This document shows positions 2,841 to 7,624 of a stretch of 17,966 bases of DNA, piece by piece; within the stretch, counting starts at the first letter, position 1; every line of letters starts with the position of its first letter. The DNA comes from Promethearchaeia archaeon (GTDB taxonomy: Archaea > Asgardarchaeota > Lokiarchaeia > Sigyniarchaeales > SOKP01), in NCBI GenBank assembly GCA_046497275.1, contig JAWOFX010000027.1, positions 1 through 17,966 on the forward strand, read 5' to 3'. The notes under the pieces were generated by a model. The model made no database searches, was not told the origin of the DNA, and was given only the letters and a program-made list of their open reading frames with translations. Position numbers and translations under genes: made by a program.

Positions 2841-4274
2841 ATGAGTTTTTCCGATATGCCTACGGATGTTGGGCCAGTTTACGAAGGGGAGCGTATCCGT
2901 TCTAAGCAGATGTTTGTGGAGCTCGGCGGACCTAAAGTAGATAAAAAATTTGAGTTAGTAAAGGTTAGAAAAGAAAGCGAAATTGAAGATGGCAAAGTAG
3001 TAGTAAGGGGACCAGATCTCAAAGATATGAAGGAAGGTGAGCGATATCCTATGGGTATCTTAGTAGAAGTAGCTGGTTCACAACTTGAAGAGGATTTAGA
3101 AGCAGTTTTTGAAAGAAGAATTCACGAATTTTGCAACTTCGTTAATGGCATCATGCATCTCAATCAAAGATATACCATGTGGATGAGAATATCTACGAAA
3201 GCATTTGAGAAGGGATTTGACACCTTAGAATATTTAGGAACGATATTAATCCGTCTTTTTAAAGCAGAACTTCCAATTGTAGAACAAGCCCAAGTAACCT
3301 TAATTACTGATGCGAAAGTGATTGATGAATACTATCAGATGGCAATGGATACATATAGTAAAAGAGATGAACGAGCCAAAGGACTACACGATGAGGATGT
3401 AGATATGTTTTATGGATGCGTTCTATGTCAGAGTTTCGCTCCAACTCACGTTTGTACAATCACACCTGACAGAACAAGCTTGTGTGGTTCTATTAACTGG
3501 TTTGACGCACGAGCCGCTGCGAAAGTGGATCCAAAAGGACCTATTTTTGAAACTCCACCTGGAGAATGTATTAATAAAGACGCTGGAGAATATAAGGGAG
3601 TAAATGAAGTAACGAAGAAACGTTCATTAGGAGAAGTAGACAGAATTTGGTTATATTCAGCAATGGAGTTTCCTCATACCTCATGTGGATGTTTTGAAGC
3701 TATAGATTTCTACATTCCAGAGGTCAATGGCCACGGTATTATTGATAGGAATGCTGATATGGTGGCAATTAATGGACTTGCATTTTCCGCTATGGCAAAC
3801 CAAACTGGAGGAGGTAAACAGATGCCAGGATTTAATGGTGTCAGTTTACAATACATAGGAAGTCCTAAATACCAACAGTATGATGCTATGCAGGAAGGAT
3901 TAGACCATGGAATCGAATTAACCGTATGGATGAATAGTGATTTAAAGGAGAGAGTAAAACAAGACATTCCAGAGGAATTGTTTGATAAGATCGCTACAGA
4001 AAAGGATGTGTCTGATATGAGCGAACTACGAGAGTTTTTAAAAGAAAAAGAACATCCAATAGTGAACACTTGGAAAGAAGAGGAAGAAGAAGAGGAATAC
4101 GAAGAAGAATGGGAAGGAGAAGGCGCGATGGTTCCAATGGGTACACAAACAATGACGATTCCTGGAGCTGGTGGAATGGGAGGATTTAAGATCATTCTTA
4201 AAAACTGCAAAGTACATGCTGATGCCCTCATCATAAAGAGGATAGATACCAAGAAGAAGAAGAAAAAGAAATAA
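2841..4274 (+). CDS. cdhC: ACDS beta subunit (acetyl-CoA synthase, A-cluster)
   Basis: DVGPVYEGERIR and ELGGPK N-terminus. A-cluster ligands C-x2-C-x8-C-x9-C (GCVLCQSFAPTHVCTITPDRTSLCG) and SCGCFE. Acidic C-terminal linker. GAGGT RBS. Confidence 0.97.
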   Translation: MSFSDMPTDVGPVYEGERIRSKQMFVELGGPKVDKKFELVKVRKESEIEDGKVVVRGPDLKDMKEGERYPMGILVEVAGSQLEEDLEAVFERRIHEFCNFVNGIMHLNQRYTMWMRISTKAFEKGFDTLEYLGTILIRLFKAELPIVEQAQVTLITDAKVIDEYYQMAMDTYSKRDERAKGLHDEDVDMFYGCVLCQSFAPTHVCTITPDRTSLCGSINWFDARAAAKVDPKGPIFETPPGECINKDAGEYKGVNEVTKKRSLGEVDRIWLYSAMEFPHTSCGCFEAIDFYIPEVNGHGIIDRNADMVAINGLAFSAMANQTGGGKQMPGFNGVSLQYIGSPKYQQYDAMQEGLDHGIELTVWMNSDLKERVKQDIPEELFDKIATEKDVSDMSELREFLKEKEHPIVNTWKEEEEEEEYEEEWEGEGAMVPMGTQTMTIPGAGGMGGFKIILKNCKVHADALIIKRIDTKKKKKKK

Positions 4275-4280
4275 GCTTAC

Positions 4281-4302
4281 ATTTTTTTATTTTTATTTTA
4301 TT
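4281..4302 (+). terminator. Oligo-T tract after cdhC
   Basis: atttttttatttttattttatt begins 7 nt after the cdhC stop, and the next gene is convergent. Confidence 0.5.
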
Positions 4303-4489
4303 ATTATCAATTTTGAATTAAGATCTGATATACCTAATTATTATCACTGCTTTTTGTTCTTCGAAATTTAACTTATTTTGTTATTTTAAAAACAAGTCTT
4401 CAAAAATAAAATCAGAGTGCATAATTTTAAATTAAAAGTGAAGAGCAAATTTAAAGAACATAAAGATTGGACTTTCAAAAAGAGAAATG

Positions 4490-4948
4490 TTAGATATAAT
4501 AGCCAGTATTATCTTCATTTATGTTGTCGTTATCGTCATCATCATCGTCTTTATTAGCACCAAAAAACTTTTTATAGAAATATTTTATAATGTCCTCTGG
4601 ATCGCCGTCCATATCAAGGTCTTTGAAATCTTTAGGATTAATCCTGATAATCCCTCCCTGTTTCATGGGGATCATATTACTTTTGAACTTCTCTTGCATT
4701 TCTCTTCTCTTTTTATCTCTGAGGCTAAGTTCCTTTTTCATTAGATTCTTTAGTTCATCAGCTACCAAGTCATCCAATTCTTCAGGAGTAAACCTTAAAA
4801 GCTCTTCAGGGCTATAATTTTTACTCACGTTATGAATCGCTCGTTCTCTTTTGTATTCCGGTATCATATTTATAGATTGGAGATCTAATTTCTTAAGGAT
4901 ATTTAGCCAATCCAATTGCACGGTCCAAATAGAATCTTTTTTTGACAT
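4490..4948 (-). CDS. Hypothetical protein (152 aa, charged, acidic tail)
   Basis: Long ORF with host-like composition and a D-rich C-terminus (DDDDDDNDNINED). No family recognised. Confidence 0.8.
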   Translation of the reverse strand: MSKKDSIWTVQLDWLNILKKLDLQSINMIPEYKRERAIHNVSKNYSPEELLRFTPEELDDLVADELKNLMKKELSLRDKKRREMQEKFKSNMIPMKQGGIIRINPKDFKDLDMDGDPEDIIKYFYKKFFGANKDDDDDDNDNINEDNTGYYI

Positions 4949-5214
4949 TTTCTTAAGTGTGAATATTATAGATATATAAAATTTCTAATTGTGTTTAATT
5001 TTTGTAATTCACGAATACTAAGTAAATTACACGAATCTAACAATTTAAATTTATATCTTTTAGCATATAAATATTTTCATGAGGAATTCTTCAAAACTAA
5101 ATAAAAAATTACATATTTGGGCAATCTCCTAAATTTTGTAATAATTTTCTTTTATACTATAATTTCATTGGTATTATTTCAAGTATTGGTCTAATTAAAT
5201 ATTAAAGAGAAGTA

Positions 5215-5466
5215 ATGAATGATTTACAATACATCTAAAATTTATGAAGGTTTTACAATATAGAAAAATTACAATCCCCAATTCCAGAAGAATTCGCAAT
5301 ACAAATTTGCCAAGAAATTAGAGAAAGAAATAAAAAATTATCATGGTCCAAATAGCAATGTTAGGGATGCATGAAATTTTCAGAGTATGAAGACCGTGGA
5401 AGGGGTATTTATGGAGAACAGGAGACGCTTCGTGGATGTAACTTGGTTAACAAGGTTTTCGAATAA
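5215..5466 (+). pseudogene. Uncalled small Cys-containing reading frame with in-frame stops (pseudogene or recoded gene)
   Basis: Manual frame-1 translation gives MNDLQYI*NL*RFYNIEKLQSPIPEEFAIQICQEIRERNKKLSWSK*QC*GCMKFSEYEDRGRGIYGEQETLRGCNLVNKVFE*. Stops are TAA 5236, TGA 5245, TAG 5353 and TAG 5362, with no frameshift. The stretch is more GC-rich and protein-like than its flanks. Confidence 0.55.
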
Positions 5467-5504
5467 AAAAAAAGTTAAAATAATAAAAATTTCTAATTGG
5501 TGTC

Positions 5505-5732
5505 TTATTTCCAATAGAATCTTAGGGAATTGCCAAATTCGTTTAAGTATGAATTATTAATTTCACCGAATTTAATCTCTCCAAAATCATCCAAGAAGTT
5601 TGGATAAATTGAATCATTAATTTCTAAATAATGTTCTAAAAAGTCCTCATATTCTTCTATACAGTAATTATCGATTTCCCCAAATTTTATCTCTCCAAAC
5701 TGTTGCAAATAATGAGTTTCTGAGATGGACAT
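5505..5732 (-). CDS. Small acidic protein with two internal FGEIKFGE repeats (paralog A)
   Basis: 75 aa. GGTGA RBS at 5742-5746. The internal repeat FGEIKFGEI is identical at protein level and differs only at synonymous positions. Confidence 0.85.
   Translation of the reverse strand: MSISETHYLQQFGEIKFGEIDNYCIEEYEDFLEHYLEINDSIYPNFLDDFGEIKFGEINNSYLNEFGNSLRFYWK
5560..5699. repeat. 26-bp intragenic direct repeat (5560-5585 and 5674-5699)
   Basis: atttcaccgaatttaatctctccaaa vs atttccccaaattttatctctccaaa has 3 mismatches. All are third-codon positions on the - strand (ATT/ATA, TTC/TTT, GGT/GGG). Confidence 0.9.
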
Positions 5733-5908
5733 ATTTAATTTTCACCTTTTAAATAATTATTTCGAAAATTAGTTACATAATTAATGATGAGTTAGTTTGA
5801 AAAAGATAGGTACTATGTCCTAAAAAAAATATGAAATTATTGATTTCAAATTGAAAAATAAATTGAAAATATTGTTTTAAAATATAAAACTAGGATAAAA
5901 AATCTTAT

Positions 5909-6115
5909 TTAACGGAAATATTTCTCCAGGGATTTTTCAAAATCGTCCGAAAGTTCGCTATTAACTTCGCCGAATTTATATTTTCCGTGAATATGTTTTT
6001 CTTCTTTAAAATATTTCTTTAATGAATGCTGGTAATCTATGCTGCAGAGATTGTTTTCTTCGGCAAATTTTATACGCCCAAAATTGGAAAGATATCCTAA
6101 TTCAAATTTAGACAT
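5909..6115 (-). CDS. Small protein with two KF(G/A)E repeats (paralog B)
   Basis: 68 aa. GAGGTGA RBS at 6128-6134. Aligns without gaps to the repeats of 5505..5732. Confidence 0.85.
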   Translation of the reverse strand: MSKFELGYLSNFGRIKFAEENNLCSIDYQHSLKKYFKEEKHIHGKYKFGEVNSELSDDFEKSLEKYFR

Positions 6116-6460
6116 TTTTGGTTTTTTTCACCTCATTTTTTTTATCTAGATATTTTTTTAATTAAATCTTATTTTGATTAAATATTATAATTTATATTTA
6201 AATGTTTTAATAAGAATAATATTTTTATTGATGTTGTTAGGAATTAATCATTTTTTATTTTAAAGACCACTATTTTTTATAAAAATTTCATTCTTGATGA
6301 TCAATATCAATCATTCACTCCTCTTTTTAAAATTACTAACAAGATTTCGTAGTTGAAAATAAAGGCAGTTTTAGTAGTTTATTTTTAACACTATGAAGAT
6401 ATAAAATGTTATTTGGATTTTAATATATAAAGAAAGATGAAATTTATACTGTGATGTCCT

Positions 6461-7624
6461 ATGTCATACATGATCAAATTATTAAATAACTTGCGAGTAA
6501 ATGAACTAAAAGATATATGTCGAGATTATGAGATAAGTGGATATTCGAATCTTACAAAAGCAGAAATTATTTCTCTTATCGCAAAAACGTTACCAGAGAA
6601 TAATATTCAGGATATTCTGAAAAAAAGGGGATTAATTGAAGATGATATTATTCCAATCGAAGATATAAAACCTCTGATAGAAACGGGGAGGGAAGTTGAT
6701 AATAGAACTTATCTTATGTACTTGATGCATTCATTAAATGTAAATGAATTGAAGCAAGTATGTAGAGATTTTCAACTCTCTGGATACTCAGGTCTTAAAA
6801 AAACAGATTTAATTCAGTTTATTCTCGATTCACTTGCTGAAGAAGAATATATACGCTTCCTTTATGAACGTGAATTAGAAATCATTAATAAAGAAATATC
6901 GACTGCGATTGATAAAATACAAGGCAATGAACGGGAATCTATAGATGAAATCAAAATAGTGAATCCAGATCTAAATGAGATTGAAATTACCTTCAAAGGA
7001 TTCAATTGGGAAACAGTTTCATTTCTCTCCATCACAGATGATAATATAGATAACCCCGATCGGGATTGTGATTGTAGAACAGGTTCAAATATGGGGTTTT
7101 GTAGCCATTTTTGGGTGGGTTTTATTTTTTCCCTAAAGGAAGGATATTTTGGTCTTTCTGATTGGTCTTTAACTCAATTACCGAAAGATTTTGAACAGAG
7201 AATAAAATCAATTCAAATTAAAGCATCTCCCGAAAGCACGCAAAAAGAGGAGGAGCTGATCCTAATCGATAAAAGTACAGATTCATCTGAATTAATGGAA
7301 TATTTAGATTCCAGAATAACTGTTTATGAGAGTGAAATAGAGGAGATTGAGAAAAAAACGTCTGAATTTCAAGATATCATTACCACTTATTATCTATTAA
7401 CGTTAAAGGATGTCACGTTTGGGCCACAACTTAAAAAGAAAAGTGAGTATGATGAAAGCAACCTCAAGACCCTCGATAAATTAGTCGTGAGAATAAGTGA
7501 TAATGCGTTTGATAAAGTAAACCCTTCAGAGGGGGATAAAATCACATTAAATGGTACTGTTAATAAAGATAATTTTCTCAAAATGTTTTTACTTAAGCGT
7601 GCTACCAAACTCAAAAAATTATAA
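6461..7624 (+). CDS. Multidomain protein: two HeH/Rho-N-like modules, SWIM zinc finger, OB-like C-terminus
   Basis: Repeats LRVNELKDICRDYEISGYSNLTKAEII and LNVNELKQVCRDFQLSGYSGLKKTDLI. SWIM motif CDC-x8-CSH. C-terminal 'EGDKITLNGTV' beta pattern suggests an OB fold (inference). Confidence 0.8.
   Translation: MSYMIKLLNNLRVNELKDICRDYEISGYSNLTKAEIISLIAKTLPENNIQDILKKRGLIEDDIIPIEDIKPLIETGREVDNRTYLMYLMHSLNVNELKQVCRDFQLSGYSGLKKTDLIQFILDSLAEEEYIRFLYERELEIINKEISTAIDKIQGNERESIDEIKIVNPDLNEIEITFKGFNWETVSFLSITDDNIDNPDRDCDCRTGSNMGFCSHFWVGFIFSLKEGYFGLSDWSLTQLPKDFEQRIKSIQIKASPESTQKEEELILIDKSTDSSELMEYLDSRITVYESEIEEIEKKTSEFQDIITTYYLLTLKDVTFGPQLKKKSEYDESNLKTLDKLVVRISDNAFDKVNPSEGDKITLNGTVNKDNFLKMFLLKRATKLKKL

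Follow-up and report, generated by a model that had tools for sequence, protein, structure and literature searches.

The two adjacent genes described here belong to an undescribed family of small proteins (42–91 aa), which among the Asgard archaea is confined to a single GTDB family (f1 in the following). Each gene product carries two copies of a unit of about 31 residues with a helix-loop-helix arrangement, and both genes, termed A and B, were confirmed as real, coding and conserved paralogous genes. For their products we favor, at a probability of roughly 45%, a pseudo-dimeric four-helix module made of these helix-loop-helix units, which would act by stoichiometric binding or as an adaptor and would be neither an enzyme nor a processed peptide. 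The window analyzed is a whole contig of 17,966 bp (G000:C11) belonging to a genome of 3.85 Mb that is 99% complete.

Gene A (5505–5732, 75 aa) and gene B (5909–6115, 68 aa), both defined by ORF and translation, are separated by 176 bp in AT-rich surroundings (GC ~25%). The sequence-only reading had given these coordinates and sizes correctly and had placed the genes on the same strand, which is the minus strand. Orthologues of gene A were found at 88%, 56% and 46% identity and an orthologue of gene B at 63% identity. The gene A product is acidic, with a net charge of −12, and the gene B product has a net charge of 0. In a search within their own genome A and B were paralogues with 39% identity (E ~7e-6), and no third copy was found there. 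Shine-Dalgarno (SD)-like motifs precede both genes on the minus strand, GGTGA at 5742–5746 for gene A (9 nt 5′ of the ATG) and GAGGTGA at 6128–6134 for gene B; the strong ribosome-binding site originally credited to each gene holds in that both have a GGTGA-type site, but the spacing of ~12 nt to the ATG of gene B is rather long. Archaea use oligo-T tracts as terminators, and two minus-strand tracts are candidates for this role, a T6 tract (5897–5902) located 7 nt past the stop codon of gene B and a T9 tract (5465–5473) located ~32 nt past that of gene A.

Convergent with gene A lies a gene for a 73-aa CxxC-containing protein (5215–5466, plus strand) that is disabled in the window, with two TAG codons in place of the two Trp codons flanking the Cys pair and with the start Met lost (IEKL vs MKEL). 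This gene is intact in two metagenome contigs sharing 90% DNA identity (L075 451–672 and L076 297–518; MKELQSPIPEE...KWQCWGCMKF...), and an RNA-library contig (5246–5669) has the same letters as the window.

The unit is described by the consensus x-(F/Y)-L-x-x-F-G-E-I-K-F-(G/A)-E-x-(N/D)-(S/N)-x4-D-(F/Y)-E-x-(S/A)-(L/F)-x-x-Y-F, in which a short helix (x-Y/F-L-x-x-F) is followed by a loop (G-E-I-K-F-G/A-E-x-N/D-S/N) and an amphipathic helix (x4-D-F/Y-E-x-S/A-L/F-x-x-Y-F). Units 1 and 2 cover approximately residues 6–36 and 43–74 of gene A and approximately residues 5–37 and 42–68 of gene B. Aligned without gaps over 25 residues, the four units shared 9–13 of 25 identities in pairwise comparisons. 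The best internal 25-mer gave a BLOSUM62 self-score of 68 for A and 64 for B, 8–9 SD above shuffled sequences (2000 shuffles, mean ~8, SD ~7, maxima of 37 for A and 42 for B), and the observed score was reached by none of the shuffles. The repeat was further confirmed family-wide by hhalign of the N-terminal against the C-terminal half, with a probability of 98.9% and an E value of 1.1e-17 over 31 columns. The four units quoted in the sequence-only reading had been correctly read, and its description of each gene as a dimer of one unit holds. The same applies to the copies of FGEIKFGE in gene A, said to differ only at synonymous sites: the two FGEIKFGEI stretches differ at 4 of 27 bases, all of them synonymous third positions. 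A Cys noted at the same position of both first units is indeed present in A and B (Cys24) but is not a feature of the family, being found at this position in only 22% of 73 members.

Using a profile built from 73 sequences, relatives were detected in 111 of the 134 genomes of f1, the GTDB family of the window; of 265 genomes sampled from the rest of the phylum, 3 gave a match. Two of these three matches were borderline (E 3e-4). The third (L042 in G357:C267, E 2e-27) lies on a 2562-bp contig binned in another family; its protein is one residue off that of a genome of genus g11 (L043), the same 152-aa gene stands beside it and it nests in the clade of one f1 genus, and it is probably a case of wrong binning and not a genuine occurrence. 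A word-indexed search of 5.8 billion proteins returned 32 relatives of 60–75 aa, all unnamed or ‘hypothetical’, with the named ones all originating from ‘Promethearchaeota archaeon’ MAGs. When 1.84 billion cluster representatives were searched exhaustively with HMMER, only 60 proteins were obtained at E ≤ 1e-3, 58 of them 42–91 aa in size. The two exceptions were a 153-aa protein with an N-terminal extension and a 1528-aa bacterial surface-repeat protein (P0091, E 7e-4), the latter rejected as a chance match via a repeated HTFGKIN string. Fused forms of the family were not found in these searches, and no viral relatives were present in IMG/VR or phage records.

No already described family was matched, in agreement with what had been proposed from the letters of the window. 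Searches of NCBIfam, PHROGs and PADLOC gave nothing significant, a profile search of PDB sequences returned only scattered local matches at E ≥ 0.0056, a feature-based search of the ESM Atlas with A, B and a consensus-like B-type protein produced no usable match, and nothing on the family was found in the literature, including by its motif strings. In Pfam there was a weak, local match to Phage_int_SAM_5, which is considered below. Together with the confinement to one Asgard GTDB family (111/134 vs 3/265), these results uphold the view of an unrecognized, lineage-specific family. Within f1, the gene is absent from genera g3 and g4 and was not found in four of the seven genomes examined from the window's own genus; in G006 of the same genus and in G033 of g3, the two genes that flank it elsewhere are directly divergent, ~320 bp apart, with no small ORF between them, and besides G006 two further genomes of that genus are without the gene. 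The gene has been lost repeatedly, and its role is therefore dispensable.

Three subtypes, A, B and C, could be distinguished. The B-type, with the signature FGEIKFAEENS ... GRYKFGEINN, is the commonest and occurs without A in most genomes. It is flanked on one side by a gene for a 152-aa protein to which no function is assigned (4490–4948 in the window) and on the other by a divergent gene for a HeH-SWIM protein (6461–7624, plus strand). Among 44 fetched loci (±1.5 kb), at least one of the two flanking genes was present in 38 and both were present in 26, and the six loci without either were A-type or single-unit genes, or short contigs. A-type proteins are acidic and retain a full second x-F-L-x-x-F-G; the A-type gene adjoins B in three genomes of the window's genus (G000, G002 and G004) and in another genus is found elsewhere, at an unrelated locus where it is flanked by an AlaX-like gene and an ABC permease gene. 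The C-type, of 75–81 aa and with the signature IFQxTNIAEINS ... KFEKTNxSFLKDF, was found in two large genera, g11 and g2, and always ~30 bp 3′ of, and on the same strand as, a gene for an NMO-family (PF03060) FMN enzyme, with which it may form an operon; in its loci (L053–L056, L060–L062, L064 and L066) the small gene lies at about position 4000–4240, with an enoyl-CoA hydratase gene and a UPF0047 gene nearby. The neighbors of A and B are the 152-aa protein, the HeH-SWIM protein, NAPRTase and CODH/ACS. Of the NMO orthologues in the genome of the window, the closest is followed by nothing in the ~350 bp fetched 3′ of it, so far as its contig extends, and a second one is followed by unrelated ORFs. 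Since the three subtypes lie in unrelated contexts, and genomes of the same and of a sister genus retain the flanking genes where the small gene is missing, the family protein is not an obligate subunit of a neighbor's product, and for the same reasons the neighbors give no partner.

Two further observations concern the B-type locus. The HeH-SWIM protein contains two Rho_N/SAP repeats in the window's genus and one in most other genera; its orthologues can be aligned from residue ~75 onward, and fused relatives of 1369–1613 aa occur in G001, G004, G012 and G020. In several genera a CATTTGAA(T/C)AAAA element is conserved within ~40 nt 5′ of B-type starts (L011, L012, L017, L020, L029, L031, L040, L046 and L050), which could be a promoter (BRE/TATA) or an operator, and which is not obvious 5′ of gene B in the window.

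A Maximum Likelihood tree, which is based on few columns and in which deep forks are weak, placed the B genes of all genera in one clade (support 97/80) and grouped A with A-type genes of its own genus and of another genus. As B groups with B and A with A, the two subtypes separated before the genera arose and do not represent a recent tandem duplication. The idea that the two genes arose side by side through a recent local duplication is contradicted by this cross-genus B clade and by the occurrence of the A-type at a different locus elsewhere. Gene A is a faster-evolving, very acidic paralogue that still lies beside B in the window's genus, the position of B being fixed. The proposed order of events, intragenic duplication before gene duplication, is borne out by the two-unit architecture of subtypes A, B and C, the sole single-unit form being confined to one genus. 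This form, of 46 aa (…YPNFIENYGKIKFAENDNFWVNDFYDSFVNYFFKE), is near-identical in four genomes of genus g8 (L019 1474–1614, L021 1474–1614, L074 1780–1920 and L022 1486–1626); its gene has a strong AAGGTG SD motif and does not adjoin the HeH-SWIM gene, and no second-unit remnant was seen past its stop codon. A different arrangement was observed at L048 (925–1152, G240:C53), where, 160 bp past a normal B-type gene, a 75-aa ORF combines 45 N-terminal residues resembling the start of an alpha/beta-hydrolase (…GEPLILLHGFPEFWY…) with 30 C-terminal residues that correspond to unit 2 of the family; this ORF is probably a chimeric remnant.

Structure prediction supported the helices of the unit more than their packing. 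The AlphaFold2 model of B, from 73 sequences, had a pLDDT of 71.6 and a pTM of 0.33, with well-supported helices at residues 23–37 and 54–67 (block means ~81–86) and low confidence in the conserved FGEIKF loops. The AlphaFold model of A, from 34 sequences, had a pLDDT of 57 and a pTM of 0.33 and showed a helix, a short strand and a helix, twice. In both models the predicted helices are usable and the tertiary arrangement is not to be trusted. An ESM-Atlas model of B had a pLDDT of 0.46, and a prediction of the A+B complex scored 0.00, a value obtained without controls that weighs neither for nor against binding; the A/B hetero-oligomer offered by the sequence-only reading gained no support, and B stands without A in the majority of genomes. 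Because the models give no trustworthy tertiary arrangement, fold searches with them came out empty: in the PDB, Foldseek matches were no better than E 8.8, and a wide VIA-align search gave a best Z of 3.0 at an rmsd >8 Å. In the family sequences, conserved aromatic or aliphatic positions recur at i, i+4, i+7 and i+8 of each long helix and the median aromatic content is 19%, which fits a packed core better than a disordered peptide. No catalytic motif, signal peptide or membrane segment is visible in these sequences. Among the members, net charge extends from −15 to +10, and a shared nucleic-acid-binding role was rejected as unlikely because of this spread.

In the reading we prefer, the two units would pack against each other into a pseudo-dimeric four-helix module with the paired conserved loops juxtaposed, a model suggested by the two-fold repetition of the unit, by the viability of a form with one unit and by the Gly/Ala-Glu that is invariant in each loop. 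The 46-aa protein of g8 would then represent half of the molecule and would form the same arrangement by homodimerization. The family protein would act in a stoichiometric manner, as a small binding or adaptor module in the cytoplasm, and the invariant polar residues (E19, N/S22, D27 and E29, with their unit-2 equivalents) may contact a conserved cellular partner or an ion. Against this reading stands the fact that no tertiary fold was predicted for either monomer (pTM 0.33 in both) and that the most conserved loop residues are the least confident ones; the data are also compatible with folding upon binding, or with a mode that uses linear motifs only. A wider proposal appears doubtful, namely that the ~31-residue unit represents a novel microprotein fold capable of pairing with itself, which originated in a single family of Lokiarchaeia-type archaea, possibly de novo in the AT-rich spacer between divergent genes, and that its half-molecule and its fused two-unit acidic, neutral and basic paralogues constitute a lineage-specific binding module regulating a core cellular hub.

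A specific version of the linear-motif mode would have each unit present a PIP-box-like (E/Q)-x-S-(L/F)-x-x-Y-F with which a bivalent protein docks on a hub such as PCNA, competing with clients or bridging them. The end of the unit, which we take to resemble a PIP box, reads QHSLKKYF in unit 1 of gene B, formally a Q-x-x-L-x-x-Y-F motif. Family-wide, the hydrophobic positions are well kept in unit 1 (L/F in 93% of members at position 32, Y/F/H in 98% at position 35 and F/L in 85% at position 36) and in unit 2 (F/L in 89% at position 63, Y/F in 82% at position 66 and F in 77% at position 67). The second motif is C-terminal in most members, and many archaeal PCNA partners carry their PIP box at the extreme C-terminus. 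However, the Gln that defines the motif is not conserved, Glu occupying its place in 77% of members, and conservation extends over the whole preceding helix (D-F-E-x-S), which is predicted as a regular alpha-helix that a PIP box does not need. We consider this mode of action improbable.

The polar residues in and near the loop could instead be read as cation ligands, with E14, E19, N21, N/S22, D27 and E29 binding Ca2+ or Mg2+ in a paired-loop domain like an EF-hand pair or a dockerin. Such a domain would account for a helix-loop-helix that occurs twice in ~70 aa as two ~30-aa loop-helix repeats, for a loop Gly/Ala with a hydrophobic residue two positions apart, and for the conserved E, N and D around the loop. 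PDB EF-hand proteins were weakly matched at E 0.025–0.09 and one member weakly matched the EF-hand-like domain of SAPC2 (SAPC2_N, E 2.8e-5), but these weak matches are not significant, and none of EF-hand_1, EF-hand_5, EF-hand_6, EF-hand_7, EF-hand_8 and Dockerin_1 was among the Pfam matches listed at E ≤ 1 (all 13 families for 34 members, the first 25 of 35 for 73 members). The register also argues against it: with the conserved Gly/Ala set as position 6 of the loop and Ile as position 8, G, I and F fall on positions 1, 3 and 5, and a variable residue instead of Glu takes position 12. A domain of this type is distinctly unlikely.

A relationship to the SAM-like (core-binding) domain at the N-terminus of tyrosine recombinases, either as a remnant of it or as a relative, was suggested by a match of A to PF13102 (Phage_int_SAM_5) with an E value of 1.1e-4 and 23.0 bits (cut-off 22.3), and by weak matches of A to PF14659 and to an integrase PHROG. 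Such a relationship is very improbable, as the PF13102 match spans only 32 of 98 profile positions (30–61), B is unmatched, and PF13102 appeared in 4 of 73 members (E ≤ 1, among the matches listed); moreover, members and flanking ORFs contain no recombinase catalytic domain, the loci show no mobile-element context and there are no viral or phage relatives.

The sequence-only reading had also offered a processed precursor peptide. A RiPP-like precursor of processed or modified peptides, with one core peptide per unit, would fit repeated units in a small ORF, two precursor-like genes in tandem and the location of subtype C 30 bp past the FMN-dependent NMO-family gene. Yet none of the three subtypes has a conserved neighbor of the radical-SAM, YcaO, lanthipeptide, protease or transporter type, their neighborhoods are unrelated to one another, the proteins have no leader, double-Gly or dibasic site, or signal peptide, conservation tracks the periodicity of an amphipathic helix and the Cys is not conserved. 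With no conserved maturation enzyme, no leader or cleavage pattern and helix-periodic conservation, this suggestion found no support and is judged highly unlikely. A type II toxin–antitoxin pair was likewise considered and rejected: A and B are paralogous rather than unrelated, they lie 176 bp apart and each has its own SD motif and T-tract, B mostly occurs without A, and no PADLOC match was obtained.

The coding status of the pair was examined by selection, translation signals and RNA. Gene A gave dN/dS values of 0.34 against the 88%-identical and 0.38 against the 46%-identical orthologue, and gene B gave ~0.10 against the 63%-identical orthologue, a comparison in which dS is saturated. These ratios support the selection on the peptide first surmised from the synonymous differences between repeats. 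Of 49 family genes, 38 have an SD-like GGTG or GAGG motif 5′ of the start, and several of those without one have TTG starts that ATG-only ORF calling skipped; reading frames are intact in 111 of the 134 f1 genomes. Contigs 100% identical to the window were recovered from salt-lake metatranscriptome libraries, for gene A in 4 runs of 2 studies (covering 5405–5740) and for gene B in 2 runs of 1 study (covering 5929–6151). These are assembled contigs from unstranded libraries, in which DNA carry-over is possible and from which neither strand nor level can be read; parts of the 3.5 kb compared are uncovered and none of the contigs spans A to B, which is evidence neither of silence nor of separate transcripts, and contig depth is much higher over B, such depths being unable to rank genes. 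An Rfam scan of 4300–6600 gave one sub-threshold chance match only. The notion of chance ORFs in AT-rich intergenic DNA, or of a non-coding element, is barely credible: AT-rich surroundings (GC 25%) and a composition in F, Y, N, K, I and E such as AT-rich DNA is expected to give would suit it, but the frame is kept in more than 110 genomes with dN/dS well below 1, SD motifs are conserved, the repeat differences are all synonymous and there is no Rfam match.

The novelty of the family lies at the level of the protein family and not of a mechanism. Asgard archaea draw attention as the prokaryotes most closely related to eukaryotes; annotation is missing for most genes specific to their lineages, and the present family is a clean example of such dark matter. 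Selection on a short protein, its presence in RNA libraries, its repeat anatomy, three subtypes, single-unit variant and natural knock-outs in sister genomes make it tractable for structural and partner work, and it can serve as an example of the origin, internal duplication and diversification of microproteins.

Compared with known systems, the family shares with PIP-box PCNA binders, including small archaeal PCNA regulators, a small size and a C-terminal (L/F)-x-x-Y-F, and differs from them in having no conserved Gln and in the placement of the motif inside a longer conserved helix. EF-hand pairs and type I dockerins, which consist of two loop-helix repeats of ~22–30 aa, resemble it in their size of ~70 aa, in internal duplication and in a loop Gly with a hydrophobic residue and acidic or amide residues nearby, and a pseudo-twofold pairing of the units is plausible; in contrast to them, the family has no sequence model of these domains among its Pfam matches listed, has hydrophobic residues at the canonical ligand positions and has no confidently predicted fold. 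The likeness to Phage_int_SAM_5 is local, a loop and then an amphipathic helix within F-x-E-I-x4-I-x2-F-x2-Y-L, whereas the family proteins are free-standing (42–91 aa), only a third of the domain is covered and 69 of 73 members are unmatched. Repeat-bearing RiPP precursors, such as the multi-core precursors of the cyanobactin type, have in common with the family a small ORF, repeated units and tandem paralogues; unlike them, the family comes without maturation genes or recognition and cleavage sequences, and its conservation is of the helical-core type.
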